Of a DNA stretch of 64,000 nucleotides, positions 1,762 to 31,579 are shown in pieces (position 1 is the first letter of the stretch; each line of letters starts with the position of its first letter). The DNA comes from Pseudomonadota bacterium (lineage in GTDB: Bacteria; Pseudomonadota; Gammaproteobacteria; Burkholderiales; Thiobacillaceae). Both the position numbers and the translations under genes were made by a program. Location of the stretch: positions 7 through 64,006 of the forward strand of contig JAKADY010000011.1 in NCBI GenBank assembly GCA_021826065.1, written 5' to 3'. The notes below the pieces were generated by a model that saw only the letters and a list, made by a program, of their open reading frames with translations, did no database searches and was not told where the DNA came from.

Positions 1762-1772
1762 GGTCGTCTGAT

Positions 1773-3942: not shown

Positions 3943-3946
3943 CCCC

Positions 3947-4891: not shown

Positions 4892-4892
4892 G

Positions 4893-5555
4893 GTGAGCCT
4901 GACCTACCACCTGCAAGTCGTCAACCTGCTGGCCGCGCTGCTGCTGCTGATCGCCTTCGCCATGCTGTCGCAGCGCCGCATCGTCGGGTTGATCACCCTG
5001 TTCGCCTGGCAGGGGGCAGCGCTGGCGACCTCGACCGCCATCGTCGCCTGGTCCACCGGTCAGCATCACCTCTACTACTCCGCCGCCCTGACCCTGGGCC
5101 TCAAGGTGGTCCTCGTGCCCTGGTACTTCTTCCGGTTGATCCGCCAGCTCGACGTGGACCGGGAGGTGGAGCCGATGATCAACATCCCCACCACCATGCT
5201 GATCGGCATCATTCTGGTGATCTTCGCCTTCAACCTGGCCCTGCCCATCTCGCAGATGGCCGGCACGGTGACGCGCTCCACCCTGGGGATTGCGCTGGCC
5301 AGCGTGCTGCTCGCCTTCCTCATGATGATCACGCGCAGCAAGGCCATCCCCCAGGTGATCGGCTTCCTGGCCATGGAAAACGGCCTGTTCTTCGCCGCCA
5401 CCAGCGCCACCTACGGCATGCCCCTGGTGGTGGAGCTCGGCGTGGCCCTGGACGTGCTGGTGGCCGTGTTCGTGCTGGGTATCTTCTTCTTCCACATCCG
5501 CGAGACCTTCGACTCGATGGATCTCAAGCACATGGAGCGACTGCGGGAGAAATGA
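4893..5555 (+). CDS. HyfE-like small membrane subunit
   Basis: In-frame GTG at 4893, 1 nt after the hyfC-like stop (the track ORF start at 4830 overlaps the upstream gene). ~220 aa, hydrophobic, ending MENGLFFAA...LDVLVAVFVLGIF as in hydrogenase-4 component E. Confidence 0.8.
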   Translation: MSLTYHLQVVNLLAALLLLIAFAMLSQRRIVGLITLFAWQGAALATSTAIVAWSTGQHHLYYSAALTLGLKVVLVPWYFFRLIRQLDVDREVEPMINIPTTMLIGIILVIFAFNLALPISQMAGTVTRSTLGIALASVLLAFLMMITRSKAIPQVIGFLAMENGLFFAATSATYGMPLVVELGVALDVLVAVFVLGIFFFHIRETFDSMDLKHMERLREK

Positions 5556-5623
5556 GCCCGGTCGGCATCTCCTCTTTGCCGCGCAACGCGCTTGCCAGCG
5601 CCGCACTCGGGAGGACGGCGTAG

Positions 5624-7081
5624 ATGGAAATGTATTGGTTGCTGGGCTTGCCGCTCGCCGGCGGTATCACCCTGGCCTTCTGGGGCCATCGCGCGCATGC
5701 CCCGGAGATCAACGCCGCCTTCAGCCTGGCCACCCTCATCGCCGCCGGGTGGCTGACCGCCCACATCGTGGCGGAAGGCCCGGTGCTGATCGGCGGCGAT
5801 GGCTGGTTCTACATCGATGCCTTCAACGTCTTTCTGGTGGCGCTCACCGCCTTCGTCGCCTTCACCACGGCGCTCTTCTCGCGCCCCTACATGCGCATCG
5901 AACAGGCGCACGGCCGGGTGAACGCAGCACGGCTGCGCCTGTACCACGCCAGCTATCAACTGTTCATCGGCACCATGCTGCTGGCGCTGACCACCAACAA
6001 CATGGGCATCCTCTGGGTGGCCATGGAGGCGGCCACCCTCACCACCGTGCTGCTGGTATCGCTCTACCGCACACCGGCCGCCCTGGAGGCCGCATGGAAA
6101 TACTTCATCCTCTGCGGCGTTGGCATCGCGCTGGCCCTGTTCGGCACCATCCTGCTCTATTTCGCGGCGGAACAGGTGCTGGGCGCTGGCGGCGGGGCAC
6201 TGTCCTGGACGCACCTCAATGCGGTGAAGACCCGGCTGGAACCCGTCGTGCTGCAGCTGGCCTTCGTCTTCCTGCTGGTGGGCTACGGCACCAAGGTGGG
6301 CCTGGTGCCCTTGCACAGCTGGCTGCCCGACGCCCATGGCGAGGGGCCCACCCCCATCTCCGCCGTGCTCTCGGGTCTGTTGCTCAACGTGGCCCTCTAT
6401 GCGGTGATGCGTTCCAAGGTCCTGGTGGACGGGGCGCTGGGCGGCGCCAGCCTGGCCGGTGCCCTGATGATGGGGTTCGGGCTGCTGTCGGTGCTCGTCG
6501 CCGCCCTGCTCATCCGGCGACAGACCGACGTCAAGCGGATGTTCGCCTATTCCTCCATCGAGCACATGGGGTTGATCACCTTTGCCTTCGGCATGGGTGG
6601 GATGGTGGCCTCCTTTGCGGCGCTGTTGCACATGACCGTGCACTCGCTGACCAAGTCGGCCATCTTCTACGCCGTGGGTCATGCCACGCAAAAGGCTGGC
6701 ACGCAGGTGATGGAGGACATCCGTGGCCTGATCAAGACCAATCCCACCATCGGTTGGGGCCTGATCCTCGGCACCATCGCCATCCTGGGCGTGCCACCAT
6801 TCGGCGTGTTCGCCAGCGAGTTCCTCATCATCACCACCACCATGCACCAGCACCCCTGGGCCACCCCGGTGCTGCTCACGGCACTGGGCGTGGCCTTCGC
6901 TGCCATGTTCGGGCGCGTGCAGCCCATGGTCTTCGGCGAGACCACCCTGCCGCGGCTGCCGCATCAGCCGGCCCTGCTGCCGGTGTTCGTCCACCTGGCG
7001 CTGGTGCTGATGTTGGGCCTGTTCATTCCGGGCTATCTCGCCCACTGGTATCGTCAGGCGGCGTGCCTGCTCGGCGGCTGA
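5624..7081 (+). CDS. HyfF/NuoM/N-like antiporter-type membrane subunit
   Basis: 485-aa polytopic ORF with GGGAGGA SD 8 nt upstream. Motifs GILWVAMEAATLTTVLLV and GYGTKVGLVPLHSWLPDAHGEGPTPISAVLSG match the complex-I antiporter-like family. Confidence 0.85.
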   Translation: MEMYWLLGLPLAGGITLAFWGHRAHAPEINAAFSLATLIAAGWLTAHIVAEGPVLIGGDGWFYIDAFNVFLVALTAFVAFTTALFSRPYMRIEQAHGRVNAARLRLYHASYQLFIGTMLLALTTNNMGILWVAMEAATLTTVLLVSLYRTPAALEAAWKYFILCGVGIALALFGTILLYFAAEQVLGAGGGALSWTHLNAVKTRLEPVVLQLAFVFLLVGYGTKVGLVPLHSWLPDAHGEGPTPISAVLSGLLLNVALYAVMRSKVLVDGALGGASLAGALMMGFGLLSVLVAALLIRRQTDVKRMFAYSSIEHMGLITFAFGMGGMVASFAALLHMTVHSLTKSAIFYAVGHATQKAGTQVMEDIRGLIKTNPTIGWGLILGTIAILGVPPFGVFASEFLIITTTMHQHPWATPVLLTALGVAFAAMFGRVQPMVFGETTLPRLPHQPALLPVFVHLALVLMLGLFIPGYLAHWYRQAACLLGG

Positions 7082-7093
7082 GGGTCAGGCGAC

Positions 7094-8644
7094 ATGGACA
7101 CGCACATCGGCGACATCGAACTCACCCTCACCCCGCAGGGCGGCAGCGCCGTCTGGCGCTTCGGCCTCGCACCTGAGCGGCTGCCGGCCTTCGCCCGCGC
7201 CATCCAAGAGGAAGGCGGGCAGTTGTTGGCCCTGTGGGGTAGCGACGACCGCCATCTCGGGCGCGGCTTCGGCCTGCATATGGTATTCCTATCGAGCCAA
7301 GGGCTCGTCTGGACCCAGGCCGATCTGCCCGCCGCAGCCCCGGAGTATCCCGACCTCGCCGCCATCTTCCCCCAGGCCGAGCGCATGCAACGCGCCGCCT
7401 ATGACCTGCTGGGGCTGCGCGCCAGCGGCGCGGTGGATGGCCGCAAATGGCTGCGCCACACCGCCTGGGGGGAAGACGAATACCCCCTGCGCAAGGACGC
7501 CCCGAGTCAGCCCCCTCCCGCCTCACCTACCCAGGCGGACGCCTACCCATTCATCCGCGTGGCCGGCGATGGCGTACACGAGATCCCGGTCGGTCCCATC
7601 CATGCCGGCGTGATCGAACCAGGGCACTTCCGCTTCTCTGTCGTCGGCGACAAGGTGCTTCGGCTGGAGGAACGGCTGGGCTACACCCACAAGGGCATCG
7701 AGAAGCGCTTCGAGGGGATGGATTTGTCGCTGGGCGCGCGGCTGGCCGGGCGCGTGTCCGGTGACAGCCACTCAGCCTACACCTGGGCCTACTGCATGGC
7801 CGTGGAGGCGGCGCTGGGGTTCACGGTGCCCGAGCGGGCGCTGTGGCTGCGGGCCCTGCTCCTGGAGATGGAGCGCGTGGCCAACCACCTGGGCGACCTG
7901 GGCTATCTCGGCAACGACGTGGCCTTAAGCTTCGGTTTCGCCCAGTTCTGGCGGCTCAAGGAGGATTGGCTGCGCCTGGCACAGCGACTGTTCGGCCACC
8001 GCTATGCCTTCGACTGCATCGTCCCCGGCGGCGTAACGACCGACCTCGGCGAGGCGGACGCCCTACTGGACCTGGTGCGGCGGCTGAGGACCGAGGTCGC
8101 GGAGCTCAAGGCGGTCTACGACGAGCATGCCGGTGTGCAGGACCGTTTCGCCCACACCGGCCGGGTCGACCCGGCCATGGCCGCGCGTTTGGGGGTCATC
8201 GGCCTGGCGGGCCGGGCGAGCGCCCAGGCCTGGGACCTGCGCGTGCAATTCCCCCACCCGCCCTACGACCGGCTGGAGGTCAACATGGCCACCGACCGAC
8301 GCGGTGACGTGCTGGCCCGGGTCGAGGTGCGCTTTGCCGAGGTGTTCGAGTCGCTGCGCCTGATCGAGGCCATCGTGCAGCGGCTGCCCGCCGACCCCCT
8401 GCAGGCGGAGGTGCCGCACGCGGACGGCGTGCGCGAGGGCTTGGGCTATGTGGAGGGCTGGCGCGGCCCCGTCCTGGTGGCGGTGCGCATCGGCATGGAT
8501 GGCCGGCTCGACCGCGTACACCCGCATGACCCGTCATGGCAGAACTGGCCGGCGCTGGAGGTCGGTATCCTGGGCAACATCGTCCCGGATTTCCCGCTCA
8601 TCAACAAGTCCTTCAATCTGTCTTACAGCGGTCACGACCTCTAG
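7094..8644 (+). CDS. NuoC-NuoD/HycE-like large subunit lacking all [NiFe] cysteine ligands
   Basis: 516 aa with a NuoC-like N-terminus fused to a HycE/NuoD-like body (PVGPIHAGVIEPGHFRF, LGYTHKGIEKRFE). The expected RxCGxCxxxH site reads GRVSGDSHSAY. The expected C-terminal DPCxxC site reads NLSYSGHDL-stop. The protein has only 2 Cys, neither in a CxxC. Confidence 0.85.
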   Translation: MDTHIGDIELTLTPQGGSAVWRFGLAPERLPAFARAIQEEGGQLLALWGSDDRHLGRGFGLHMVFLSSQGLVWTQADLPAAAPEYPDLAAIFPQAERMQRAAYDLLGLRASGAVDGRKWLRHTAWGEDEYPLRKDAPSQPPPASPTQADAYPFIRVAGDGVHEIPVGPIHAGVIEPGHFRFSVVGDKVLRLEERLGYTHKGIEKRFEGMDLSLGARLAGRVSGDSHSAYTWAYCMAVEAALGFTVPERALWLRALLLEMERVANHLGDLGYLGNDVALSFGFAQFWRLKEDWLRLAQRLFGHRYAFDCIVPGGVTTDLGEADALLDLVRRLRTEVAELKAVYDEHAGVQDRFAHTGRVDPAMAARLGVIGLAGRASAQAWDLRVQFPHPPYDRLEVNMATDRRGDVLARVEVRFAEVFESLRLIEAIVQRLPADPLQAEVPHADGVREGLGYVEGWRGPVLVAVRIGMDGRLDRVHPHDPSWQNWPALEVGILGNIVPDFPLINKSFNLSYSGHDL

Positions 8645-14283: not shown

Positions 14284-14406
14284 GAAAATCGGCATAGCCG
14301 ATCACATCGCCCCCTTCCCCCGCAAGCGGGGGAGGGGGTGGGGGAGAGGGAACCGTTCATGGACGGGGCGAGCGTTTTTTCATGGGCAAGAGCGGCCATG
14401 AACGGT
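14284..14406. repeat. BoxC-like GGGTGAGGG intergenic repeat, copy 1 (subtype with ACCGTTCATG...CATGAACGGT ends)
   Basis: GAAAATCGGCATAGCCGATCAC - CCCCTTCCCCCGCAAGCGGGGGAGGGGGTGGGGGAGAGGGAACCGTTCATG ... CCATGAACGGTCA. Near-identical architecture to 50935-51063. Lies between the queA start and the LysR stop. Confidence 0.8.
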
Positions 14407-15350
14407 CAGCTTGGCTTGTCCGGTCGGGCGGCCGAGCGGCGGTAGGGCGCCAGCAGTTCGTCCGTGAACTGGTGGATGAAGCGGCGGAACTGCCCCACCA
14501 CCGGCATGTCGCCCTTGACGCTCAGGTAGACCAGATACCAGTGGCCGAGGATGGGCAGTGTCTCGACGTCGAGGACGCGGATCTCCTCGCCGAAGTGGAG
14601 GCCCGCCAGCATGGTCCGCGAGACGATGGACACGCCCACGCCGGTGGCGACCGCCTGCTCGATGGCGAAGTTGCTGCCGAGCTCCATGCGCGGGCGGATC
14701 TTGATGCCGTGTTGCGCCAGATGGCGCTCGATGGTGATGCGCGTGCCCGAGCCCGGCTCGCGCATCAGGAAGGGCTGGGCGCAGAACTCGGCCAGGGGGA
14801 TGCGGCGCCGGCGCCGCGCGAGGGGATGCTGACGGGCGGCGATGGCCACCAGCTCGTTGGGCATGAAGGGCTCCACCGTCAGGTCCGGCCCCTCTGGCGG
14901 CACGCTGAAGATGTAGAGGTCGTCGAGGTTGTCGCGCATGCGCTTCAACAGCACGTCGCGCTGGGTCACGCTCAGGGTGGGCTCGATGGCCGGGTGCTGT
15001 TGCAGGAAGTGGCCGAGGATGCGCGGGGCGAAGAACTTGGCCGAGGTCGCCACCCCCAGCCGTAGCCTCCCCCCCTCCAGCCCCTTGAGCGCCTGTAGCC
15101 GCGCCTGCATCTGCTCCAGCCCGTCGAGCATGATGCGCGCGCCGGCCAGCACGATCTCGCCCGCCTCGGTCAGATGCAGCTTCTTGCGGTGGGTGTAGAA
15201 CAGCGGGCTGCCGACGATGTCCTGCAGCTGCGCCATCTGCATGGACACCGTGGGCTGGGTCAGGTGCAGTTCGCGCGCGACCTGGCTGAAGTTGCCGCAG
15301 CGGGCGAGGCGCTCGAAGACCTGCAGTTGGCGCAGTGTGGGGTAGGCCAT
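14406..15350 (-). CDS. LysR-family regulator, CbbR paralog
   Basis: ATG at 15350 (track ORF runs to 15482). 314 aa. Alignable along its length with the cbbR product at 40020 (HLTQPTVSMQM, GRLRLGV..SAKFFAPR, LMREPGSGTR, ELGSNFAIEQAV). Divergent from SulP gene 15473. Confidence 0.8.
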   Translation of the reverse strand: MAYPTLRQLQVFERLARCGNFSQVARELHLTQPTVSMQMAQLQDIVGSPLFYTHRKKLHLTEAGEIVLAGARIMLDGLEQMQARLQALKGLEGGRLRLGVATSAKFFAPRILGHFLQQHPAIEPTLSVTQRDVLLKRMRDNLDDLYIFSVPPEGPDLTVEPFMPNELVAIAARQHPLARRRRRIPLAEFCAQPFLMREPGSGTRITIERHLAQHGIKIRPRMELGSNFAIEQAVATGVGVSIVSRTMLAGLHFGEEIRVLDVETLPILGHWYLVYLSVKGDMPVVGQFRRFIHQFTDELLAPYRRSAARPDKPS

Positions 15351-15354
15351 TAGA

Positions 15355-15372
15355 TATAGGTTTATACCTATA
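15355..15372. promoter_or_regulatory. LysR-type palindromic box
   Basis: TATAGGT-TTAT-ACCTATA, perfect 7-bp arms, 5 bp from the LysR start codon and ~100 bp upstream of the SulP start. Same core pattern as ATAGAT-TTAC-ATCTAT at 39879-39894. Confidence 0.55.
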
Positions 15373-15472
15373 GTCGGTATCGTAACAATTGATTTCAGCT
15401 TATACAAGCCGCGCCCTAAGATGACCCCCATGGCGCGGCATCCGGTCACGCATCGAGAGAGAGGAGCTTTCC

Positions 15473-17554
15473 ATGAACCCAAGCCTGTCGAACTGGCTAC
15501 CGTTTTTACGCTGGTTCCCCATGACCCCCGCCACCCTGCGCGCCGACCTGGTCGCCGGCGTCACCGTGGCCCTGGTGCTGGTGCCGCAGAGCATGGCCTA
15601 TGCCCTGCTCGCCGGCCTGCCGGTGGTCTACGGCCTGTATGCCGCGCTGTTGCCGGTCATCGTCGGTGCGCTGTTCGGCAACTTCAACCTGCTGCATACC
15701 GGCCCGGTGGTGATGCTCTCGCTCATGTCGGCGGCAGCGGTCGCTCCCTTCGCCATCGCCGGCTCGGACGAGTTCATCGCCCTGTCCATCCTGCTCGCCC
15801 TCATGGTCGGCGTGCTGCGGCTGCTGATGGGCGTCTTCAAACTGGGCGGGATCGTCAACCTTGTGTCGCACCCGGTGCTCATCGGCTTCACCAACGCGGC
15901 AGCGCTCATCATCGGCCTGTCGCAACTGCGCTTCATCCTCAACATGCCCAACCCGGGCACCGGCAGTTTCGCCGGCGACGTCACCACCCTGCTCGCCCGT
16001 CTCGACCAGGCCTACTGGCCGGCCGTCGCCTTCGCCGCCGGTGCGGGCCTGATGATGTGGCTGCTCATGCGCTGGCTGCCCAAGCTGCCGGCGGTCCTGC
16101 TCGCGGTCGTGTTCGGCACCGCCCTGAGCGCCGCCATCGGCTATGAGCAGGTGGCCAATCCCGGTGTGGAGCGCATCGCCGACCCGGAGGTGCGCACCAT
16201 GCTCACCACCTTTGCCGAGACGAACCAGACGTTGAAACAGCTCGCAGCCGAGGCCACCCGCCAGCGTGCCGCCCTGCGCGAGGCCGAGGCCGCGGGGGCG
16301 TCGGCCACGACCCTGACGGCCCTGCAGGCGGAGATCGAGGTGCTGGAGGTGCGCATCGAAAACCTCAAGAAGGAAAACAACGCGCGCCGGCTGGACCTGC
16401 ACGCCCAACCCCTGGTCGCGGTCGATACGGCCGACGGGCTGACCTACTACCGCGCTGACCGCCTGCCTGCCGGGGCCACCCCGATTGACGGCACCTGGCG
16501 GTTCCAGGGACTGAAGGACGGCAAGGTCACGCTGGCCGCCGGCGGCGACGTGGTCGGCCAGATCCCGGCGGGGCTGCCCGAGTTCAAAGCGCCCACGCTC
16601 GATTGGAACATCATGCTGACGCTGCTGCCAGCGGCCTTCGTCATGGCCCTGATCGGCTTCATGGAGGCCACCTCGGTGTCCAAGGCCCTGGCCGCCAAGA
16701 CGCATGAGCGCCTCGACACCAACAAGGAGCTGATCGGTCAGGGCTTGGCCAACATCGTCGGTGCCTTCTTCCAGAGCTACACGGTGAGCGGCTCGTTCTC
16801 GCGCTCGGCTGTGGCCGCACGCGCGGGCGCGAAAACCGGTCTGTACGCGGTGGTGAGCGCACTGGTGGTGCTGGTCGTGCTGCTCTTCCTCACGTCCTAC
16901 CTCTACCACCTGCCGCAGGCGGTCCTGGCCACCATCGTCATGATGGCGGTATTCGGCCTGATCCGTGTGGCGCCGCTCAAGCAGGCCTGGCGGGTGCAGC
17001 GCAGCGACGCGGTGGCGGGCCTGATCACCTTCGTCGCCACCCTCGCCTTCGCCCCCGACATCGCCAACGGCATCCTGATCGGTATGGCGCTGACGGCCAC
17101 CTTGTTTCTTTTGCGCACCATGAAGCCGCGTGCGGCGGTGCTCGGGCGCAAGGCCGACGGCAGCCTGGGCGGCACCGACAGCGGGGCGCTTGAGCCGCTC
17201 GGCCAAAACTTCGTCGCCATGCGCTTCGACCGCTCGCTCAACTACCTCAATGTGGCGGCCTTCGAGGACAGCGTGCTGGAGGTGCTGGCGCGACAGCCCC
17301 AGGTGCGCGGCATCCTGGTCATCGGCTCCGGCATCAACGAGCTCGACGCCAGCGGTGCGGACAAGGTGCGCGAGCTGGCCGAGCGCCTGCAACAACAGGG
17401 CGTGGTCCTAATGTTCAGCAGTCTAAAGGCACCGGTGGCCGATGCCTTCGGCCGCGCCGGCCTGATCGAGCTGCTCGGTCCGGACAACGTCTTCCCGAGC
17501 AAGGCCCAGGCCGTGGATGCCGCCCGGCGGCGCTTCGATCTCGCCCCCGCCTGA
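15473..17554 (+). CDS. SulP-family anion transporter with C-terminal STAS domain (candidate DIC/bicarbonate transporter), carrying a ~130-aa insertion
   Basis: 693 aa; GAGGAG SD 8 nt upstream. SulP hallmarks: DLVAGVTVALVLVPQSMAYALLAGLP, GQIPAGLPEF, NKELIGQGLANIVGAFFQSYTVSGSFSRSAV. STAS-like C-terminus. Residues ~225-360 are extra relative to the usual SulP layout. Confidence 0.85.
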   Translation: MNPSLSNWLPFLRWFPMTPATLRADLVAGVTVALVLVPQSMAYALLAGLPVVYGLYAALLPVIVGALFGNFNLLHTGPVVMLSLMSAAAVAPFAIAGSDEFIALSILLALMVGVLRLLMGVFKLGGIVNLVSHPVLIGFTNAAALIIGLSQLRFILNMPNPGTGSFAGDVTTLLARLDQAYWPAVAFAAGAGLMMWLLMRWLPKLPAVLLAVVFGTALSAAIGYEQVANPGVERIADPEVRTMLTTFAETNQTLKQLAAEATRQRAALREAEAAGASATTLTALQAEIEVLEVRIENLKKENNARRLDLHAQPLVAVDTADGLTYYRADRLPAGATPIDGTWRFQGLKDGKVTLAAGGDVVGQIPAGLPEFKAPTLDWNIMLTLLPAAFVMALIGFMEATSVSKALAAKTHERLDTNKELIGQGLANIVGAFFQSYTVSGSFSRSAVAARAGAKTGLYAVVSALVVLVVLLFLTSYLYHLPQAVLATIVMMAVFGLIRVAPLKQAWRVQRSDAVAGLITFVATLAFAPDIANGILIGMALTATLFLLRTMKPRAAVLGRKADGSLGGTDSGALEPLGQNFVAMRFDRSLNYLNVAAFEDSVLEVLARQPQVRGILVIGSGINELDASGADKVRELAERLQQQGVVLMFSSLKAPVADAFGRAGLIELLGPDNVFPSKAQAVDAARRRFDLAPA

Positions 17555-18573: not shown

Positions 18574-19931
<1,358 letters not shown>

Positions 19932-19935
<4 letters not shown>

Positions 19936-21392
19936 GCGGCCGTGTCCTCCTGACGGGGCAACCAGACGGAAAAGCGGGTGCCGCCCGAGGGCGGGCAGTC
20001 GACCAGGATGCAGCCCTGGTGCTCCGCCACGATCTCCTCGACCAGGTAGAGGCCCAGGCCCGTCCCCTCGCCGGCGGTGCGGGTGGTGAAGAAGGGGTCG
20101 AAGATGTGTGGCAGTATCTCGGGCGGGATGCCCGGGCCGTCGTCCTCGACGGCGATGCGCACGGCGCCGCTGCTTTGCCGCAACACCACCGGATCGCCGG
20201 CCAGGTGCCCGGCCTCGGCCAGGTCGTCGTGCCAGGTGGCCGGCTGCGCGCTCACCGTGATGTGGCGGGCGCCGGCATCGGCGGCGTTCTTGATGAGGTT
20301 GATGAAGACCTGTTGCAGCCGCTCGCGATCCACCCGGACCTCGATGTCGGCGCTACTCCCCACGCAGACCTGCACACCGGCGGGCATTTGCCCGTGCACC
20401 AGGGCGAGCGCCGACTGGACCAGGGCGTCCAGGGGCACGACCTGCAGTTGCAGCTTGGGCTGCCGCACGCTGTCGAGCAGTCGCCGCACGATGCGCCGCG
20501 CCCGTTCGGTCTCGCTGTCGATCTGGGTCAGCCAAAGCCGGCGCAGCTCGACATCCGCCGCATCACCCTCCTCGATCAAAAGCTGCACCGAGGTGGAGAT
20601 GTTCGCCAGTGGGTTGTTGAGCTCGTGCGCCACCCCGGAGACCAACACCCCCAGCGCGGCGGCCTTCTCGTTGCGCTTGACCTGGTCCTGCTGCTGACGC
20701 ATGCGCTTCAACATCGCGTTGAAGGCCTCGACGAAGGCCTGGATCTCCTGGTCCTCAGAGGGCAGGGTGAGGGCGCGCGCGCGGCCCTCGTCGATCGCCA
20801 CCAGCCCACTCTGCAGCGCCTGCAGCGGGCGCACGACGCGGCGCACCAGGAACAGTCCACCCGCCACCCCCAGGGCCACCACGCCGATAAAGGTGAGCAG
20901 CAGGGTCAGGCCCGCGCGGCGGGTGGCCTCAGTGAGCCGCGCACGCTCCCGCCGGGAGAGCGTCTGCGACAGTTCGCTCAACTCGTGCCCCTGGGCGCGC
21001 AGTCCCGGCTGCGCCGCCATCTGGGCCGCAGGGTCGAGCCGGTCATAGCGCTCCAGCGCCTGGCCATAGTCGTCGAGGAGACGCAGCATGCGCTGATAGA
21101 CCGCCGCCCCGCTGACCTCGACCACCACCTCGCGCCCGGCGGCAAGCGCCGCGCGCGCCAGGGCCACCTGCTGCAGCAACTGATCGAGGCTCGTCCGGTC
21201 GCGGTAGAGAAACAGGTTCTTCTCGTCGCGCCGCATCTCCAGGATGGCCTCGCGCACGTCGGTCACGGAGCGGCCGGCCTCGATCTGCCGATCCAGTAGG
21301 TAGAGATCGGCGAACACCACGGCGGCGAAGAACAGCATGACCAGCTTCGAAAAGCCGTAGGCCTTGAGGATCTTGTTGCGCAGACTGGGCAT
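19932..21392 (-). CDS. sensor histidine kinase (two TM segments, HAMP, HisKA, HATPase)
   Basis: ATG at 21392 (MPSLRNKILK; the track ORF extends to 21551 into the AT-rich intergenic region). H-box SGVAHELNNPL, N/G boxes NLIKNAADA and DDGPGI...GTGLGL. The stop overlaps the regulator ATG. Confidence 0.8.
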
Positions 21393-21412
21393 GGCTCGGG
21401 TGGGGCGTGGGT

Positions 21413-21472
21413 TGTTGCATGTTACACCAACTGCAACATGGGGTGTAACGCTTTGCAACAGCGACTGTTGCA
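21413..21472. promoter_or_regulatory. nested palindromes, candidate enhancer (UAS) for the NtrC-type regulator
   Basis: TGTTGCA(21413-19)...TGCAACA(21432-38); GTTACACC(21421-28)...GGTGTAAC(21442-49); perfect TGCAACA-GCGAC-TGTTGCA (21454-72). Located 50-110 bp upstream of the -24/-12 promoter and followed by an AT-rich tract (21482-21522) that could bend DNA. Confidence 0.5.
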
Positions 21473-21522
21473 GATCGCCATCCAATTGTTCTATATATAT
21501 GTTTTTTATGTATTTTATAAGT

Positions 21523-21537
21523 TGGCACACGCATTGC
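21523..21537 (+). promoter_or_regulatory. sigma-54 (-24/-12) promoter
   Basis: TGGCAC-ACGCA-TTGCT matches the TGGCAC-N5-TTGCW consensus with correct GG-N10-GC spacing. Sits 44 bp upstream of ATG 21581 and divergent from the sigma-54 activator operon. Confidence 0.7.
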
Positions 21538-21550
21538 TTGATTGATGACA

Positions 21551-21570
21551 CCTGAACCTGGAACCTGAAA
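21551..21570 (+). repeat. CCTGAAN heptad-like repeats in 5' leader
   Basis: CCTGAA-CCTGGAA-CCTGAAA immediately upstream of AGGA and ATG 21581. Same motif class as 28693-28723 (minus) and 44844-44870. Confidence 0.5.
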
Positions 21571-21580: not shown

Positions 21581-22141
21581 ATGAAACTCACCCAAGACAT
21601 CAAGCGCATGCTCAACGCCCTGGCCTATGCCAACGCCGGCGACTACCTGACGCCCAGTCAGAAATCGCGTGCCCTCTCGGGCACCCGGCCGGCAAAACCC
21701 GCCCCGACCGTCCAAACCAACACCGGGGCGCGTCCCCAGGTCGGGCTCTACCTGGGCAGCGAGCTCACGGCCGAGGCCATGCAGTACGTCGTGCAGACCT
21801 GCGCCCGGCTGCGCTATGGGCTCACCGTCCTGACCTTCCTGAGCGAGACCGAGGCCCAGGCCCTGCTCATGCCGCTCAGGCCCCTGCTCGACGCCGCGGG
21901 GATCGAGCTGCGTCTGGCCGTGCTCTCGGGCGAGCCGCCCACCGCCCTGGCCAGCGCCCTGCGCCGCCGCCCGGAGGTGGCCTTCCTGGTCTGCAACGAG
22001 GCGGGCTATCTCGGGCACGGCCTGATCAGCGGCAATCAGCGGCAGGTGGGCCTGCCAGTGCCGGTGGTCCTCATCGCCGCCCAGGCGTCCGTCGCCGAGG
22101 CCACGCCGACACAACAGGCCGCCCAGGTCCGCGCTGCCTGA
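21581..22141 (+). CDS. hypothetical protein (possible USP-like alpha/beta C-terminal domain), first gene of the sigma-54-driven SulP operon
   Basis: 186-aa ORF with protein-like composition. Conserved-looking N-terminal peptide MLNALAYANAGDYLTPSQK, a Pro/Thr linker, then alternating beta/alpha pattern (VGLYLGSE...LTVLTFLSE...VAFLVCNEAG...PVPVVLI). Family not recognised. Confidence 0.5.
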   Translation: MKLTQDIKRMLNALAYANAGDYLTPSQKSRALSGTRPAKPAPTVQTNTGARPQVGLYLGSELTAEAMQYVVQTCARLRYGLTVLTFLSETEAQALLMPLRPLLDAAGIELRLAVLSGEPPTALASALRRRPEVAFLVCNEAGYLGHGLISGNQRQVGLPVPVVLIAAQASVAEATPTQQAAQVRAA

Positions 22142-22209
22142 GCAAAAGGCCGCGGACGCCCTGGAATAAGATCGTCTGGACAACGCCCCGTGTGCCCGGC
22201 ACGGGGTCC

Positions 22210-24300
22210 ATGCCCATGCTGACCCGCTTTTTTCCCTTCCTGCGTTGGTTTCCCCTGACCCCGGCCAACCTGCGCGGCGACCTGATCGCCGGCATCACCG
22301 TCGCCCTGATCCTGATCCCCCAGTCCATGGCCTACGCCACCCTGGCGGGTCTGCCCGTGGTCTATGGGCTCTATGCCGCATTTCTGCCCGTGATGGTGGC
22401 CTCGATGTGGGGCTCCTCGCGCTTCCTGCATACCGGCCCGGTCGCCCTGCTGTCGCTGATGTCCGCCGCCGCGATCGAACCGCTCGCGAGCCGCGGCAGC
22501 GAGGAATTCATCCAGTTCTCCATGACCCTGGCCCTGCTGGTCGGCATCATGCGGCTGGCCCTGGGGCTCTTTCGCATGGGGGTGCTGATCAACCTGGCCT
22601 CGCACCCGGTGATCAACGGTTTCACCAACGCCGCCGCCCTGATCATCGGCCTGTCGCTCCTCAACACCTTCGTCAACGTGCCCATGCCGCGTTCGGACAT
22701 GTTCCTGCGCGACCTCTGGCACGTCATCGTGCAGCTGCCGCTCGCGCACTGGCCCACGCTCGCCTTCGGCATCGGCACCCTGCTCGTGTTGTGGCTGCTC
22801 AAAAAGCTCTCGCCCAAGCTGCCGGGCGTGCTGATCGTCGTCATCCTCGGCACTGTGGTGAGCGCCGCCATCGGCTTCGAGCGCACCGACCTCGTGCCTC
22901 TGGAACGCATCACCGATGTCCAGGCCCGCGCCGACTATGAGACCTATGCCCGGCTGGACGCCGCCCTGGCGGCGAACAAGAAGGCCCAGGGCGAGGTGCG
23001 CCACCGCATCGCCACCCTGGCCAAGAGTGCGGTGCACGACTACAGCCTCGAGGCCGAGCTGCTGCGTCTGAGCGGCGAGGAGGAGAGCCTCAAGAAACAG
23101 CTCTACGGCCAGCGGGTGGCCGTGCACCGGCATGCCCTGGTGCCCGTCACCGCAGCAGATGGGCAGCCGGTCTACCAGGCCGCCACAGAGGCCGGATTCT
23201 TCGATCCGGTGTGGCGCTTCGCCGGGGTCAAGGACGGCCAGATCCGGCTCTCGGGCGGCGGCCAGGTGGTCGGCCACATCCCGGCCGGCCTGCCCGGCTT
23301 CGCCATCCCCCCGCTCGACCTCGGCCTTATCAGCGGTCTGCTCGGCACCGCCTTCATCATGGCGCTGATCGGCTTCATGGAGGCCACCTCGATCTCGCGG
23401 GCGCTCGCCGCCCAGAGTCGCGAAAAGCTCGACCCCAACCAGGAGCTGATCGGCCAGGGCCTGGCCAACATCGTCGGCGCCTTCTTCCAGTCCTACACCG
23501 TGTCGGGCTCCTTCTCCCGTTCGGCCGTGGCGGCCAAGGCGGGCGCCCGCACCGGCTTCTACGCCATCGTCAGCGCCCTGGGGGTGGTCGCGGTCATGCT
23601 GTTCATGACCGAGTACTTCTACCACCTGCCGCAGCCAGTGCTGGCCGCCATCGTCATGAGCGCGGTGTTCGGCCTGATCGACTTCCGCACCCTGCGCCAC
23701 GCCTGGAATGTGCGCCGGGGCGACGGTGTGGTGGGTCTCATCACCTTCCTCGCCACCCTGTACATGGCGCCCCAGCTCGCCAATGGGGTCCTCGTCGGGG
23801 TGGTGCTCACCATCCTGCTCTTCCTGCATGGGGTGATGCAACCGCGCAGCGAGGTGCTCGGCCGCACCCGCGACGGCACCCTGGCCGGGGCGGCCAGCCA
23901 CGACCTGCCGCCCATCAGCGACAACTACGTGGTCCTGCGCTTCGACGCCTCGCTGGTGTTCATCAACGCCGCCTTCTTCGAGCAGGCGGTGATGCGCGCG
24001 CTCGCCCAATTCCCCAGGGCGCGCGCGGTGCTGGTGATCGGCAACGGCATCAACCAGATCGACGCCTCGGGCGAGGAGAAGCTGCGCACCCTGGTGGCCG
24101 ACCTCAAGGCCGCCGGCGTCACCCTGATGTTCTCGGGCCTCAAGAAGCAGGTGCGCGAGGCCCTGGCGCGGGCCGCCCTGGACGAGGTCATCGGTCGCGA
24201 AAACCTCTTCCCCAACAAGGACCTGGCGCTCAAGACCCTGGCCGAGCGTTACGACCAGGCCGCACCCCCCGCGGCACCGCCGGGCTTGGCGCCGGCATGA
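22210..24300 (+). CDS. SulP-family anion transporter with STAS domain (second paralog, candidate DIC transporter), with ~130-aa insertion
   Basis: Track ORF starts at GTG 22192. ATG 22210 (MPMLTRFFPFLRWFP) aligns with the paralog N-terminus. Same SulP hallmarks (DLIAGITVALILIPQSMAYATLAGLP, GHIPAGLPGF, NQELIGQGLANIVGAFFQSYTVSGSFSRSAV) and the same inserted segment position. Confidence 0.85.
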   Translation: MPMLTRFFPFLRWFPLTPANLRGDLIAGITVALILIPQSMAYATLAGLPVVYGLYAAFLPVMVASMWGSSRFLHTGPVALLSLMSAAAIEPLASRGSEEFIQFSMTLALLVGIMRLALGLFRMGVLINLASHPVINGFTNAAALIIGLSLLNTFVNVPMPRSDMFLRDLWHVIVQLPLAHWPTLAFGIGTLLVLWLLKKLSPKLPGVLIVVILGTVVSAAIGFERTDLVPLERITDVQARADYETYARLDAALAANKKAQGEVRHRIATLAKSAVHDYSLEAELLRLSGEEESLKKQLYGQRVAVHRHALVPVTAADGQPVYQAATEAGFFDPVWRFAGVKDGQIRLSGGGQVVGHIPAGLPGFAIPPLDLGLISGLLGTAFIMALIGFMEATSISRALAAQSREKLDPNQELIGQGLANIVGAFFQSYTVSGSFSRSAVAAKAGARTGFYAIVSALGVVAVMLFMTEYFYHLPQPVLAAIVMSAVFGLIDFRTLRHAWNVRRGDGVVGLITFLATLYMAPQLANGVLVGVVLTILLFLHGVMQPRSEVLGRTRDGTLAGAASHDLPPISDNYVVLRFDASLVFINAAFFEQAVMRALAQFPRARAVLVIGNGINQIDASGEEKLRTLVADLKAAGVTLMFSGLKKQVREALARAALDEVIGRENLFPNKDLALKTLAERYDQAAPPAAPPGLAPA

Positions 24301-24351: not shown

Positions 24352-25422
24352 TCAGGGCTGCGCTGCCGACGGGGCCGGGGCCCTGGCCTGCACCTCGGCC
24401 AGCGCCCGTTCGAGCGTCTCCAGACGGCGCTGGAGCGCCGTCATGCGCGCCTGCATGGCACCGACGTTGAAAAAGCTCAAGTTCTCCGCCGGGGCGTCCA
24501 GGGTGTTGCCGTAGGCCAGCCACGAGCCGTCGTAGACCTTGACGTTGGTGAATCCCAGCTCCTTGAGCACCCCGGCGGTCTGCGCGGCGCGCACGCCGCT
24601 CTGGCAATAGACGATCGTCTCCTTGTTGGGGTCGAGCCGCGCGTAGAGCTCACGCAGCTTGCCCGCCGGTTTCAGCGCCATGCCATCCTTGCTGTTGACC
24701 TGCCGGCGGGTGAGCTTGGACGGCGTGTCGGGATCGACCCAGTTCTGCTCATAAGGGATGTTGAGGGCCCCAGGGATGTGGCCGCCGCGTAACGCCCGCA
24801 CGTCCTCTCCCTTGAATTCGGGCAGGGTGCGCACGTCGACGATCTGCACGTCCGGCCGCTTGAGGGCTGCCAGGACGTAATCCGTGCTGACGGCGACCTG
24901 CGGATTGACCGATAGATTGAGGTTCACGGGCGTCGGCTGCGGCGGCTGTGTGGACAGCGCCAGCCCGGCCGCCTTCCAGTCGTCGATGCCGCCGTGATAG
25001 ACGCTCGCCCGCCGGCCGTTGAGATATTCGATGGTGTACAGACCGAAATATGGTACCGCGCTCCCCTTGTCGCCATAGATGACGATCTCACGCGCCGGGT
25101 CCAGGCCGACCGAGCCGAGCAAACGCGCCATCTGCTCGAGCGGGATGAAGTCCTCGTCCACCTCGCGGCGCAGGGTGCGGCTGATGTCGCCAATGTTGAC
25201 CGCGCCGGGGATGTGCCCCTTGCGATAGTCCTCGGCGCTGCGCACGTCCCACAGAAGGGCGCCGCGGGCGATGGCCGCCTGCACGGCGGCGGTGTCGATG
25301 ATGCGGACGCTCGCTGTGGCTTGCGCCGCTGGCCGGGCCTCGGCCAGCCCCGTCAACGGCAGGGCGCCTGCGCTCAGGCCCAGCATCATCACCAACAGGG
25401 TCCTTCTGACGGTATGTCTCAT
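24352..25422 (-). CDS. secreted tandem-rhodanese sulfurtransferase with C-terminal coiled-coil tail
   Basis: AAGGAGG SD then ATG-GAG-ATG; the second ATG (25422) is preferred. Signal-peptide-like MRHTVRRTLLVMMLGLSAGALPLTGLAEA. Two rhodanese modules, active-site loop CQSGVRAAQ in the second. Tail MQARMTALQRRLETLERALAEVQ. Confidence 0.75.
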   Translation of the reverse strand: MRHTVRRTLLVMMLGLSAGALPLTGLAEARPAAQATASVRIIDTAAVQAAIARGALLWDVRSAEDYRKGHIPGAVNIGDISRTLRREVDEDFIPLEQMARLLGSVGLDPAREIVIYGDKGSAVPYFGLYTIEYLNGRRASVYHGGIDDWKAAGLALSTQPPQPTPVNLNLSVNPQVAVSTDYVLAALKRPDVQIVDVRTLPEFKGEDVRALRGGHIPGALNIPYEQNWVDPDTPSKLTRRQVNSKDGMALKPAGKLRELYARLDPNKETIVYCQSGVRAAQTAGVLKELGFTNVKVYDGSWLAYGNTLDAPAENLSFFNVGAMQARMTALQRRLETLERALAEVQARAPAPSAAQP

Positions 25423-25575
25423 CTCCATCCTCCTTGCTCCAGACACAGGGACATCGCCACCACGCGGCCGGCCTGGGTGCCGGCGCGTGGGGCGGGCTCT
25501 AAGACTGCGCTGAACAGCTTTGTTGGGTGAATGATAGACGCCCATGCCGTCGCCTGCACGCAGCAGGACGATAGG

Positions 25576-26337: not shown

Positions 26338-28692
26338 TCATCGCGTCAGCCCCATATAGAGCATCGGTAACTTCTCCGGCAGCCGCTCCACGTGGTCGAG
26401 CACGGTGAAGTTCTTGACCCCGAAGATGCGCGACACATAGAGGTCGGCATGCGGGTCGAGCGACAGGGCATAGGTGACGATGCCGTCGCGCGTGAGCTCC
26501 TCCACCGCGCGTTTGGCGTCGAAGCGCAGGTATTGCGGGTCGCGCACGTCCTGGTCGGCCGGCTCGCCGTCGGTGATGATGAACAGGATCTTCTTGGCGT
26601 GCGGCTGCTGCTTGAGGAAGCTCCCGGCGTGGCGCAGGGCCGCCCCCATGCGCGTGGAGTAGCTGCCCTGCATGCCGGCCAGCCGTGCCTTGACGACATC
26701 GTTGTAGGGCTGGGCGAAGTCCTTGAAGCGGTAATAGTGCACGTCGTGCCGGCCGTCCGAGCAGAAGCCGTGGATGGCGAAGGGGTCGCCGATGCGGTGA
26801 AGCGCGTCGGCGAGCAGCACGGTGGCGGCGCGCGTGAGATCGAGGATGCTGTAGTCTTGGCCACGCACCTTGTCGTTGGAGGATTCTGACAGGTCGAGCA
26901 GCACCATCACCGCCAGGTCGCGCACGTGGCGCTTGAGCCGCATCATGATGCGCGTGTCGGGTTGTCGCCCCATGCGGATGTCGATCATGGCCCGCACGGC
27001 GGCGTTGATGTCCAGCTCGTCGCCGTCCTCCACCCGGCGGATGCGCTGCATGCCCTGCGGGATCATGGACTCGATCAAGAACTTGAGCCGCGAGATGACC
27101 GGTTTGTTGTCTTCGATGAGCTTCTCGATCACCGCCAGGTCGCCCAGGCGCGGCCGCCGCTCCAGCACGGTCACCCAGCTGGGGCGCTCCAGCTGGATCT
27201 GGTAGTCCCACTCGTGATAGTGCACCGGGTCGGCCACCGGCTCCTTGCCTTCCAGGGCGTTGATGGTCACCCCCTCCTGATCGAGGTAGAACTCAGTGGG
27301 CAGCACCCAGATCTCCTGGGCGTCGTCGCCGGCGAACTCGACGTCCACCTCGTTGACCATCTCCATGACGTTGACCTTCTTGCGCACCTGCTTGGGTGCC
27401 CAGGTCGCCTCCAAGGCCACTTCCTCGCTGTATTCCTCCGATTCCCAGACGGTGCGGTTGTCGTCGCGGTAGATGGCGCGCAGGCCATCGGTGCGCGGGT
27501 TGTACTCCGGCAGGGGGATCTGGCCTAGGTGATGGGCGAGTTCCACCCCGATGTTCCAGCTCAGCTGATTGCTCGTGAGGTCGGTCTCGGCGCGGAACAG
27601 CTCGACCCCCTTGCGCACCCAGGGGTGCGGGTCGGCGTCGTCCTGGGCGAGCAGGGCGCGCGCCAGGCGGTTGATGAGGTCGCCGACGGTCTTCGGCTCG
27701 CCATAGTCGGGCTGCGGGTGGAAGGCAAGCCACGCTGCACGCATGTTGGGGAACTGCCGGCAGGCGAGCTCCTCCACGCGGGCGTCCTCGATCGCCTCGA
27801 TGATCGCCATCTGCGTGGTGTTGAGTTCCTGCATGGACAGCGGCGCATGGGTGAAGACCAGGTGGGCGGCGCAGTGGTTGGCCGCGGCGCGGTAGATCTC
27901 CAGGCCCGGGATCACCAGCTCGGGCGGCGTGGCCTCGCCAAAGGGGCGATAGTCGTCGTAGGCGTCGGCGATGTGGATCACATAGCGTTCGATGTAGGGC
28001 TTCAGTCCCTCGCGCGTCTCGTAGTCGCCGGCGGTCGGGCGCAGAAAGAAGTCGCGCCCCCACATGGCGCGCAGATAGATGTTGAGCCGGCGCTGCACAT
28101 CGACGAAGAGGGTGCCCTTGCGCTCGGCCTGCAGCACCGACAGGGCGTCCGGGCTCTGCAGGGAGAAGTAGCGCACCTGGCCGTCGAAGTCGGTCTTGTA
28201 GGCCTGCGCCCCCCACTGCACCCAGCGGCGCAGGCCCCCCAGGGTGAGCTGGGTAAGCAGCCGGTCCAGGTTCTCCAACATGGGCCGCAAGCCGCGCGGG
28301 GCCTGCGCCAGCATGATGGACAGCACGTTGAGATAGTTGCGGAAGAGGTCGGGGTCGCCCAGGCGCTCGGCGGCGAGCGGGGCGGTCGCGGCGATCAGGG
28401 TCAGCACCTGGCCCGAGGTCTTCGAGGCCATGCTGAGCAGGAAGTTGACCAGGTCCGGCAGCACGTCCTCGCCGATCGCCCGCGCCACCTCCGGCATGGT
28501 CTGCAGGTAGGTGACCACGAGCTCCTCGCCGCGGCCCAGGCTGTGCAGGGCGACCGCCCCCTTGAGGTAGTTGTCCAGCCCGCGCGAGGAGAAGGCGCGC
28601 GCCGCCTCGTTCCAGGCCCCACGCAGCACCTCCAGGGCGCCGTGCGGTAGCTCAGCGGTGAGCGCCTGATAGTCCTCGAGTTTGATGGCCAT
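26338..28692 (-). CDS. cbbO: RuBisCO activase adaptor subunit CbbO (vWA domain)
   Basis: 784 aa directly downstream of cbbQ. C-terminal vWA/MIDAS-type region (VMVLLDLSESSND...IFIITDGEPAD). Size and position typical of CbbO. Confidence 0.85.
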   Translation of the reverse strand: MAIKLEDYQALTAELPHGALEVLRGAWNEAARAFSSRGLDNYLKGAVALHSLGRGEELVVTYLQTMPEVARAIGEDVLPDLVNFLLSMASKTSGQVLTLIAATAPLAAERLGDPDLFRNYLNVLSIMLAQAPRGLRPMLENLDRLLTQLTLGGLRRWVQWGAQAYKTDFDGQVRYFSLQSPDALSVLQAERKGTLFVDVQRRLNIYLRAMWGRDFFLRPTAGDYETREGLKPYIERYVIHIADAYDDYRPFGEATPPELVIPGLEIYRAAANHCAAHLVFTHAPLSMQELNTTQMAIIEAIEDARVEELACRQFPNMRAAWLAFHPQPDYGEPKTVGDLINRLARALLAQDDADPHPWVRKGVELFRAETDLTSNQLSWNIGVELAHHLGQIPLPEYNPRTDGLRAIYRDDNRTVWESEEYSEEVALEATWAPKQVRKKVNVMEMVNEVDVEFAGDDAQEIWVLPTEFYLDQEGVTINALEGKEPVADPVHYHEWDYQIQLERPSWVTVLERRPRLGDLAVIEKLIEDNKPVISRLKFLIESMIPQGMQRIRRVEDGDELDINAAVRAMIDIRMGRQPDTRIMMRLKRHVRDLAVMVLLDLSESSNDKVRGQDYSILDLTRAATVLLADALHRIGDPFAIHGFCSDGRHDVHYYRFKDFAQPYNDVVKARLAGMQGSYSTRMGAALRHAGSFLKQQPHAKKILFIITDGEPADQDVRDPQYLRFDAKRAVEELTRDGIVTYALSLDPHADLYVSRIFGVKNFTVLDHVERLPEKLPMLYMGLTR

Positions 28693-28723
28693 CCGGGTTC
28701 AGGGTCCGGGTTTCAGGTTTCAG
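28693..28723 (-). repeat. CTGAAAC-type heptad repeats abutting the cbbO start codon
   Basis: Read on the minus strand: CTGAAAC-CTGAAAC-CCGGACC-CTGAACC-CGG-ATG. No GGAGG-type SD visible. Confidence 0.5.
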
Positions 28724-28790
28724 TCAATCCTCGCTGCGGTGCAGCGCGGCAAAACGACTGCATCCTGTAACCCGCAGCCCGTATCCTGAA

Positions 28791-29705: not shown

Positions 29706-29720
29706 GGTTCTGATCCTCGA

Positions 29721-30637: not shown

Positions 30638-30720
30638 TTCAGTACGCGCCGGGCCGCCCGAAGCGGACTGACAGCCCCCTCGTGGGGCGGCGAGCATCGC
30701 GAGCCGGGGGTCGTATCATC

Positions 30721-31008: not shown

Positions 31009-31060
31009 GTCCCACCGCTCCCCGGCATTCGCACGACAGTCGCGCAAGCCGACTCTCGCT

Positions 31061-31564: not shown

Positions 31565-31579
31565 GCGCCGCTATGAGGC

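Follow-up and report, generated by a model that had tools for sequence, protein, structure and literature searches.

A predicted periplasmic hairpin-plus-sheet domain between TM7 and TM8 in a clade of SulP/SLC26 transporters

Why should a bacterial SulP transporter carry about 130 extra residues at a point where an ordinary SulP protein has about 3? We address this question for SulP1, a SulP/SLC26 transporter with a C-terminal STAS domain, encoded in a 64,000-nucleotide stretch (the window) of contig JAKADY010000011.1 from a Thiobacillaceae bacterium (GenBank assembly GCA_021826065.1). The extra residues, hereafter the insert, lie between transmembrane helices (TM) 7 and 8. While the protein itself belongs to a known kind, the insert apparently adds something new, a hairpin-plus-sheet domain that is confidently folded in structure predictions and most likely lies in the periplasm.

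Limits and predicted fold of the insert

SulP1 scores 307.6 bits with the Pfam family PF00916 (Sulfate_transp; gathering score 23.2) and 33.0 bits with the STAS family PF01740 (cut-off 22.6). The gene and its parts are as follows, with positions in the window and amino acids (aa) of the protein:

15473..17554, + strand: SulP1 gene, 693 aa, SulP/SLC26 transporter with C-terminal STAS domain (Pfam, AlphaFold2, Foldseek)
15527..16138, + strand: TM1-TM7, first half of the 7+7 fold, aa 19-222 (AlphaFold2 DSSP; first Pfam/PDB block)
16151..16540, + strand: the insert, clade-specific predicted periplasmic domain, aa 227-356 (comparison with canonical SulP, Pfam, AlphaFold2)
16541..16594, + strand: TM7-TM8 linker motif GGxVVGxIPxGLPxxxxP, aa 357-374, intact after the insert (invariant alignment columns)
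16604..17110, + strand: TM8-TM14, aa 378-546, with E398 in TM8 and GSFSRS in TM10 (PDB alignments, AlphaFold2)
17129..17536, + strand: STAS domain, aa 553-688 (Pfam; alpha/beta STAS fold in the model)

The extra residues fall between TM7 and the GGxVVGxIPxGLP linker. Across this junction a canonical SulP of 580 aa (locus L011, from a Saprospiraceae genome) reads ...LEAY-GVKVVGKVPSDLP, and SulP1 reads ...GYEQ-[131 aa]-GGDVVGQIPAGLP. Family profiles break at the same place. The Sulfate_transp profile aligns in two blocks (for example, positions 216-379 on SulP1 aa 356-518, and positions 1-210 on aa 27-227 of the paralog SulP2 described below), leaving the approximately 130 insert residues unaligned opposite about 5 profile positions. 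The NCBIfam sulP, DauA and BicA models are each split into at least two separate blocks on SulP1. Likewise, 22 of 22 full-length or TM-domain SLC26/SulP chains in the PDB align in at least two blocks around the insert: the PDB and NCBIfam blocks listed restart at about aa 351-375, and the first block ends at aa 166-222 in the three printed alignments.

The profile and structure alignments, together with the canonical protein, thus establish a true insertion between TM7 and TM8 and not a common SulP feature, as had been proposed in an earlier note made from the letters of this DNA. The range given there, 16145-16552, corresponds to aa 225-360 of the 693-aa open reading frame (ORF), and the peptides it quoted are found in that range. 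The linker motif aligns to that of AtSULTR4;1, prestin and SLC26A6. Since this motif follows the insert in complete form, the added domain elaborates the end of TM7.

The AlphaFold2 model of full-length SulP1 contains 14 TM helices in the SLC26 order, seven of them ahead of the insert, and Foldseek matches this model to 7LHV, prestin, SLC26A6, SLC26Dg and BicA in the PDB (E values from 3e-25 to 1e-9). Over the insert region the block-mean predicted local distance difference test (pLDDT) is 85-92. When the insert alone is modelled from a 36-sequence alignment, the pLDDT is 92.7 and the predicted template modelling score (pTM) 0.81. The predicted structure is an antiparallel two-helix hairpin (36 + 33 residues, about 50 Å) on a 4-5-stranded beta base, with the hydrophobic residues of the hairpin in an a/d heptad pattern:

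16148..16183, + strand: pre-hairpin segment, aa 226-237, with short strands at 226-235 and conserved I235 and D237 (AlphaFold2, conservation)
16184..16291, + strand: hairpin helix 1, aa 238-273, a/d heptad hydrophobics, outer face polar and variable (AlphaFold2, conservation)
16292..16303, + strand: hairpin tip, aa 274-277, more variable than any other part of the insert, with small indels beside it (entropy, gaps)
16304..16402, + strand: hairpin helix 2, aa 278-310 (AlphaFold2, conservation)
16403..16540, + strand: beta module, aa 311-356, strands 314-319, 322-327, 338-348 and 351-355 (AlphaFold2)

The models therefore match the coiled-coil hairpin followed by a beta segment that the earlier note had described. 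Where the note spoke of a "barrel-like" module, the model has a sheet of four to five strands.

In SLC26 proteins the N terminus and the STAS domain are cytoplasmic. With seven TM helices ahead of it, the insert is expected on the non-cytoplasmic side, and the positive-inside count made with the insert set aside agrees (15 K+R in 115 "in"-loop residues vs 3 in 95 "out"-loop residues). Both observations fit the periplasmic location suggested before. Taking domain, fold and side jointly, the models make it very probable that the insert is an independently folding hairpin-plus-sheet domain on the periplasmic side of the membrane. An extra TM or re-entrant segment was considered and rejected, as the insert is hydrophilic throughout with a maximum 19-residue hydropathy of 0.9.

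Distribution and conservation of the insert

A second SulP gene of the window carries the same insert:

22192..24300, + strand: SulP2 gene, 702 aa, insert-bearing paralog, 54% identical to SulP1 (Pfam)
22885..23253, + strand: insert of SulP2, aa 232-354, 123 aa (paralog alignment)

Within the insert SulP2 (Sulfate_transp 330.7 bits; STAS PF01740 41.8 bits) is 33% identical to SulP1, and outside it 59%. Beyond the window, each of the 120 best relatives in the database carries the insert (identity 54-96%; length 633-793 aa, mostly 684-727), among them all 40 of an aligned subset. These come from Thiobacillaceae, Hydrogenophilales, Sulfuritalea, Sulfuriferula, Thioalkalivibrio, Thiohalophilus, Thiohalocapsa, Thiohalorhabdus, Ectothiorhodospiraceae, Azospira and Pelomicrobium, and a second search added Candidatus Thiodiazotropha. 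We also sampled loci, 11 full-length from genomes and 80 from metagenomes, and kept about 95 of their proteins for alignment. The insert is found in every aligned protein down to 43% identity, with a length of 123-142 aa and a single case of 162 aa. In total about 215 relatives from the database and the loci were examined, and none lacks it.

A large clade of SulP/SLC26 transporters from beta- and gammaproteobacteria is defined by the insert. Four of its sub-clades differ in their gene neighbours and all bear the insert: one linked to LysR-type regulators (SulP1-like), one linked to a histidine kinase, a sigma-54 regulator and the small gene orf186 (SulP2-like), one linked to carboxysome genes and one linked to an Ehr complex. 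The clade appears to be very abundant in environmental sulfur oxidisers and symbionts, based on hit lists which also include ordinary SulPs. That the insert is functional had been argued from its presence in the two paralogs, and its retention in SulP2 and throughout the clade extends this argument. Selection also speaks against chance or an assembly artefact: in comparisons with close orthologs the ratio of nonsynonymous to synonymous substitution rates (dN/dS) is 0.20-0.45 for the insert, 0.08-0.15 for the TM region and 0.10-0.37 for STAS. The insert is under purifying selection comparable with that on STAS and looser than that on the TM region.

Two other origins of the insert were considered and rejected. 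An assembly or frameshift artefact does not agree with an ORF that is intact in about 100 independent assemblies, nor does a mobile or intein-like insertion with a conserved position and length and no nuclease or intein match in Pfam or NCBIfam.

The nearest insert-less SulPs are only about 30-40% identical, and some are found in tandem with an insert-bearing gene. Ordinary SulPs of this kind stand in tandem in L076, L083, L093, L095 and L096 (for example, 585 aa in L095, 30-40% identical), providing a natural comparator for the contribution of the insert. Two single loci are also worth recording. The 162-aa insert, the longest, belongs to a distant relative of 43% identity (L104, 6001-8115). 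A low-GC SulP homolog from an uncultured bacterium (L012, 1738-3462) reads through many TGA codons, and the genetic code of this genome is probably recoded with TGA as a sense codon.

Within the insert, conservation is uneven. In 103 non-redundant sequences W342 is conserved at 98% and R343 at 94%, forming the motif W342-R343-[FIW]344, and W-R occupies positions 342-343 in 91 of the 99 loci proteins. The conserved positions are E225, I235, D237, L298, K299, N302, R305, R306, H310, L314, W342, R343 and F344, amongst which L298, K299, N302, R305, R306 and H310 are helix 2 residues at the base of the hairpin. Mapped onto the predicted structure, the conserved residues gather at the membrane-proximal base. 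The surface of the hairpin and its tip vary (tip entropy 2.8; gap fraction up to 0.12 at aa 275-278), and the hairpin length is kept within a few residues. Helix 2 has in addition a semi-hydrophobic outer stripe that faces away from helix 1 (position 282 hydrophobic in 78%, 286 in 84% and 293 in 61%, with V290 beside it); the back face of helix 1 averages 28% hydrophobic.

The W-R motif together with the hairpin insert of about 130 aa can serve as a marker for a probable transporter clade for dissolved inorganic carbon (DIC), in a Pfam family whose substrates are otherwise unreadable from sequence.

Searches with the insert return SulP proteins. Using phmmer against 1.84 billion representative proteins we obtained 16 matches, ten of which were scanned: seven have a SulP Pfam match, one is a short fragment without Pfam match, and two (P0133 and P0135) are unrelated proteins which we take as spurious. 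Thus, with ten of the 16 scanned, the credible matches lie inside SulP proteins only. A profile search with the insert alignment in a 5.8-billion-protein set gave zero matches; as the known members were missed too, we treat this as a limit of the tool and not as evidence. The insert profile finds only weak generic coiled-coil matches among PDB sequences (E >= 0.006), and comparison of the insert with Pfam and NCBIfam gives no family, only weak coiled-coil matches.

A literature search for a periplasmic, coiled-coil or hairpin insertion in SulP/SLC26 proteins found nothing relevant. SLC26/SulP transporters (prestin, pendrin, BicA, plant SULTR) are intensively studied, and no solved structure has a folded domain outside the membrane between TM7 and TM8. 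Apparently, a periplasmic hairpin domain in SulP transporters is so far undescribed.

Substrate of the host and possible role of the insert

The best PDB sequence match of SulP1 is 7LHV (E = 4.7e-81). The closest solved structures are AtSULTR4;1, SLC26Dg, prestin, SLC26A6 and SLC26A9, which share with it the 7+7 inverted-repeat elevator fold and STAS, and the AtSULTR4;1/SLC26 structures also share the TM7-TM8 linker motif, the TM8 Glu and the GSFSRS of TM10. Unlike SulP1, they have no folded domain between TM7 and the VGxIPxGLP linker, and none covers the insert in the three printed alignments.

BicA (PDB 6KI1), the known cyanobacterial SulP-type bicarbonate transporter, has the same fold (TM domain aligned at E = 1.2e-27; Foldseek E = 7e-10), and we propose the same substrate for SulP1. 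BicA lacks the insert, the listed block placing BicA profile positions 222-400 on aa 361-541. It has a Na+-site Asp at the TM8 position where SulP1 carries a Glu (E398), as the H+-coupled SULTR does. Since E398 and GSFSRS are as in AtSULTR4;1, the coupling ion and the substrate are not readable from the sequence. The insert-bearing SulPs are not orthologs of BicA or DauA, judged by SulP1 and SulP2: the two proteins score 129.4 and 134.4 bits with the BicA equivalog NF050096 (cut-off 880 bits), and 177.2 and 188.7 bits with the DauA equivalog NF008660 (cut-off 614 bits).

As to gene context, the window encodes a complete carboxysome:

26338-39673, - strand: complete alpha-carboxysome operon (Pfam annotation)

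This operon contains cbbL, cbbS, csoS2, csoSCA, csoS4A/B, three csoS1 genes, cbbQ and cbbO, as well as a ferritin-like and a pterin-dehydratase-like gene, and ends about 2 kb from SulP2. Carboxysome genes are found within 7 kb in 6 of 9 annotated homolog neighbourhoods, three of which have DabAB or SbtA/SbtB too. For example, the insert-bearing SulP of Thiohalorhabdus directly follows carboxysome genes and DabB/DabA, and that of Thiohalophilus follows carboxysome, SbtA and SbtB genes and is itself followed by LysR. Two further assemblies also have the gene after carboxysome genes. These are the loci L017, L019, L021 and L022, in each of which carboxysome, DabAB or SbtAB genes immediately precede the homolog. 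In Pelomicrobium carboxysome genes lie at most 4 kb away, and in Sulfuritalea the insert-bearing SulP adjoins csoS1D. Carboxysome, RuBisCO, Sbt or Dab genes occur on 18 of the 80 metagenome contigs, most of which are short.

Published work on carboxysome-adjacent SulPs agrees with this context. Passages of the supplement of PMC10880623 describe such SulPs ("clade C") as likely bicarbonate transporters, several of them beside carboxysome loci. According to passages of PMC12628692, the carboxysome-adjacent SulP of Thiomicrospira pelophila rescues an E. coli lacking carbonic anhydrase and accumulates DIC. As far as these passages go, clade C, the T. pelophila protein and the insert clade are alike in placing a SulP/STAS gene beside alpha-carboxysome, DAC/Dab and Sbt genes, and the order carboxysome-SbtA-SbtB-SulP-LysR in L019 is the one described for T. 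pelophila. The passages on carboxysome-adjacent SulPs in these two sources do not mention a periplasmic insert. From the gene context we consider it likely that the host SulPs are bicarbonate importers of a CO2-concentrating mechanism. Bicarbonate transporters of chemoautotrophs are candidates for building such mechanisms in crops and industrial microbes, where a domain specific to the periplasm may be important to how the protein folds or works in its new host.

How could a periplasmic domain serve such an importer? TM7 is part of the static gate (scaffold) domain in the elevator fold of SLC26 proteins. For SLC26Dg the membrane dimer interface is small and centred on TM14 of the gate domain, the protein is monomeric in detergent, and dimerisation matters for function (PMC6497670). 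With TM7 in the gate domain, a weak dimer interface and an insert that is kept despite differing partners, we favour reading the insert as a brace or gate extension. It would be an intrinsic, fixed extension of the gate domain where TM7 ends and not a moving part of translocation. In the periplasm it could brace the two protomers through contacts between the hairpins or through helix 2, and it could enclose the outward-facing entrance in a vestibule. Because four sub-clades with differing neighbours keep the insert, its role is more plausibly intrinsic to the transporter than the docking of one partner.

In NhaA, another elevator-type transporter, a beta-hairpin in an outside loop of the scaffold domain acts as a dimer clamp. 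Taken by itself, the bracing and vestibule mechanism proposed for the insert is possible but less likely than not. The whole explanation, which joins the periplasmic domain, the bicarbonate host and the brace or vestibule, is the best that we can offer and is held tentatively. If the insert does stabilise the dimer or shape access, the clade would be a natural experiment on the weak SLC26 dimer and on the gate domain in elevator transport.

Several observations weigh against this explanation. The outer faces of the hairpin are polar and variable except for the helix-2 stripe, which fits a solvent-exposed strut too. K299, R305, R306 and H310 are just 63-71% conserved across the clade, leaving W342 and R343 as the only near-invariant residues. 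On the side of the host, SulP1 falls far under the BicA equivalog cut-off (129 vs 880 bits) and its bicarbonate role is drawn from context; 3 of the 9 annotated neighbourhoods contain no carbon-fixation genes. Finally, no named Thiomicrospira or Hydrogenovibrio occurs among the best 120 relatives, with SulP1 or the Thiohalophilus protein as query; the likeness to T. pelophila is one of gene context.

An alternative role is anion capture. The base of the insert (W342-R343, H310, R305/R306, K299 and D237) would act as a tethered site, bicarbonate-binding or electropositive, just above the outward-facing cavity, raising the local substrate concentration like a built-in substrate-binding protein, with the hairpin as a scaffold. 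The conserved insert residues are indeed mostly basic or aromatic and lie at the membrane-proximal base, the W-R dyad is near-invariant within a fast-evolving domain, and the host is an anion transporter in CO2-concentrating loci. Nonetheless, the sub-clade of 43-48% identity has lost or altered the majority of the basic positions, and W342 and F344 probably face the hydrophobic core, which would make them structural. If the hairpin were no more than a scaffold, its length would not need to be conserved, and comparisons with PDB sequences, Foldseek and Pfam found no known oxyanion-binding fold resembling the insert. We therefore think this capture role unlikely.

The insert could also dock a partner, and the window offers candidates next to SulP2:

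18574..21551, - strand: histidine kinase and sigma-54 NtrC-type response regulator (Pfam)
21523..21538, + strand: perfect sigma-54 promoter consensus TGGCACACGCATTGCT, ahead of orf186 and SulP2 (sole match in the window; 0.04 expected by chance)
21581..22141, + strand: orf186, conserved 186-aa ORF directly upstream of SulP2 (homologs in loci)

In this alternative the hairpin is a docking platform for a periplasmic partner. This could be the histidine kinase encoded alongside, which would join the transporter in a complex through its periplasmic sensor domain, or a carbonic anhydrase of the periplasm in a transport metabolon. The equivalent TM7-TM8 loop (EL4) of AE1, a structurally related SLC4 exchanger, reportedly binds carbonic anhydrase IV. 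Coiled-coil hairpins are common protein-binding elements and helix 2 bears an exposed semi-hydrophobic stripe. Relatives of the kinase and/or the regulator stand beside the SulP gene in about 21 loci (for example L002, L003, L044, L061, L064, L067 and L073), and in the window a sigma-54 promoter precedes the SulP2 operon. However, the insert is kept equally in the LysR-, carboxysome- and Ehr-linked sub-clades, which lack the pair, and transcriptional control alone explains a conserved regulator linkage. The hairpin surface is poorly conserved, and the LCIB-like carbonic anhydrase of the window has no obvious N-terminal signal peptide, as judged by reading the sequence (no predictor was run). 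Docking thus seems decidedly unlikely.

The NhaA clamp and EL4 of AE1 are akin to the insert as outer loops for dimer contacts (NhaA) or for partner binding at TM7-TM8 of a bicarbonate carrier with the 7+7 fold (AE1). They differ in being short loops or hairpins and not a 130-residue coiled-coil domain, and there is no sequence relationship.

A bolder version of these ideas makes the hairpin a periplasmic coupling element and no passive brace, which would work either with the all-helical sensor of the kinase in joint bicarbonate sensing or as a built-in bicarbonate capture device that lends a secondary carrier the high affinity known from binding-protein-dependent systems. If true, either would introduce a principle that is new to SLC26-type transporters and to CO2-concentrating mechanisms, but we give this a low probability.

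The host might instead carry another anion, for example exporting the sulfate that sulfur oxidisers make in the cytoplasm, with the insert serving that purpose. The concentration of the clade in sulfur-oxidising bacteria would fit, as would the TM8 Glu and TM10 GSFSRS that match the plant sulfate transporter AtSULTR4;1, the rhodanese-domain gene adjoining SulP2 and the homologs without carbon-fixation neighbours. Against this stands the linkage to carboxysome, DabAB, SbtA/SbtB, CsoS1D and LCIB-like carbonic anhydrase genes in many independent genomes. The TM10 motif is found as well in bicarbonate-carrying SLC26 proteins, SLC26A6 for example, and DIC accumulates in the experiment on a carboxysome-adjacent SulP described in passages of PMC12628692. 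We consider a different substrate improbable.

Lastly, the earlier note compared the insert with membrane-fusion proteins (MFPs), and this likeness is weak and one of architecture, not of family. In a Foldseek search of the isolated insert against the PDB the best match is 2f1m_D (AcrA; E = 0.014, probability 0.99, TM-score 0.46), and MFPs fill much of the top of the list (AcrA, then MacA, MexA and TMexC; E 0.014-0.5, TM-score 0.27-0.46), with a root-mean-square deviation of 17-19 Å and no match at E < 0.001. The insert and these proteins have in common a long antiparallel periplasmic hairpin flanked by beta strands, and the order of strand, long hairpin and strands recalls the MFP hairpin, which sits within the lipoyl domain.

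Aligned with E. coli AcrA by hhalign, the insert reaches a probability of 4%, with a different region aligned, and no MFP Pfam family (HlyD, Biotin_lipoyl_2, HlyD_D23 etc.) is listed for the 36 insert sequences at E <= 10. The beta-barrel and membrane-proximal domains of MFPs are absent, the hairpin being followed by about 46 residues of beta structure. The likeness is a weak architectural analogy, not membership.

If the insert were nevertheless an MFP-like adaptor, its hairpin would reach a TolC-like channel or porin to form an envelope-spanning conduit. An MFP hairpin tip holds a conserved motif that touches the outer-membrane factor, whereas no part of the insert varies more than its tip. 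A sealed MFP tube requires six hairpins; SLC26 proteins are dimers, and two hairpins cannot close a tube. The hairpin of about 50 Å with its small base is also short for reaching the outer membrane. Unlike in MFP systems, no outer-membrane-factor gene is seen nearby: no such Pfam match occurs in the nine Pfam-annotated neighbourhoods, where some neighbours have no Pfam match at all, and no pump or outer-membrane-factor gene is among the annotated window genes within about 15 kb. The outer-membrane contact suggested earlier is accordingly disfavoured by the variable tip, the dimeric host and the nine neighbourhoods, and we dismiss the adaptor as very improbable.

Regulators and other neighbouring genes

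The two SulP paralogs seem to be under separate regulators, LysR-type for SulP1 and histidine kinase/sigma-54 for SulP2. The first is encoded divergently from SulP1:

14406..15350, - strand: LysR-type regulator (CbbR-like), divergent from SulP1, likely start ATG at 15350 (Pfam HTH_1, LysR_substrate)

A relative of this regulator accompanies the SulP gene in many loci. The intergenic region 15351-15472 contains the inverted repeat ATAGGT-TTAT-ACCTAT, which fits a LysR T-N11-A box. On the SulP2 side, two TM helices of the histidine kinase flank an all-helical segment, and the protein may therefore be a periplasmic anion sensor, perhaps for bicarbonate. Copies of orf186 that are 39-62% identical occur in 20 loci, most of them directly upstream of the SulP gene; orf186 has no Pfam match and belongs to no known family. 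Between the carboxysome operon and SulP2 lies the gene for a protein with two rhodanese domains (24352-25545, - strand).

Upstream in the window, the gene for the LCIB-like (theta-type) carbonic anhydrase (227-1372) stands ahead of a Hyf/complex-I-like membrane module, and gene and module together span 227-8644 on the + strand. The module genes are HyfB/NuoL-like (1930-3942), HyfC/NuoH-like (3947-4891), HyfF/NuoN-like (5624-7081) and HyfG/NuoCD-like (7094-8644). Because its NiFe-binding cysteines are replaced (RVSGDSHS; C-terminus NLSYSGHDL), the HyfG-like protein is not a hydrogenase. Such a module lies directly downstream of an insert-bearing SulP in at least 7 metagenome loci, with 50-72% identity on contigs that are long enough. 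Loci with the module are L076, L082, L095, L081, L084, L085 and L100, and L009 has it beside a SulP1 ortholog. The module could be a new energy-coupled component of the CO2-concentrating mechanism.

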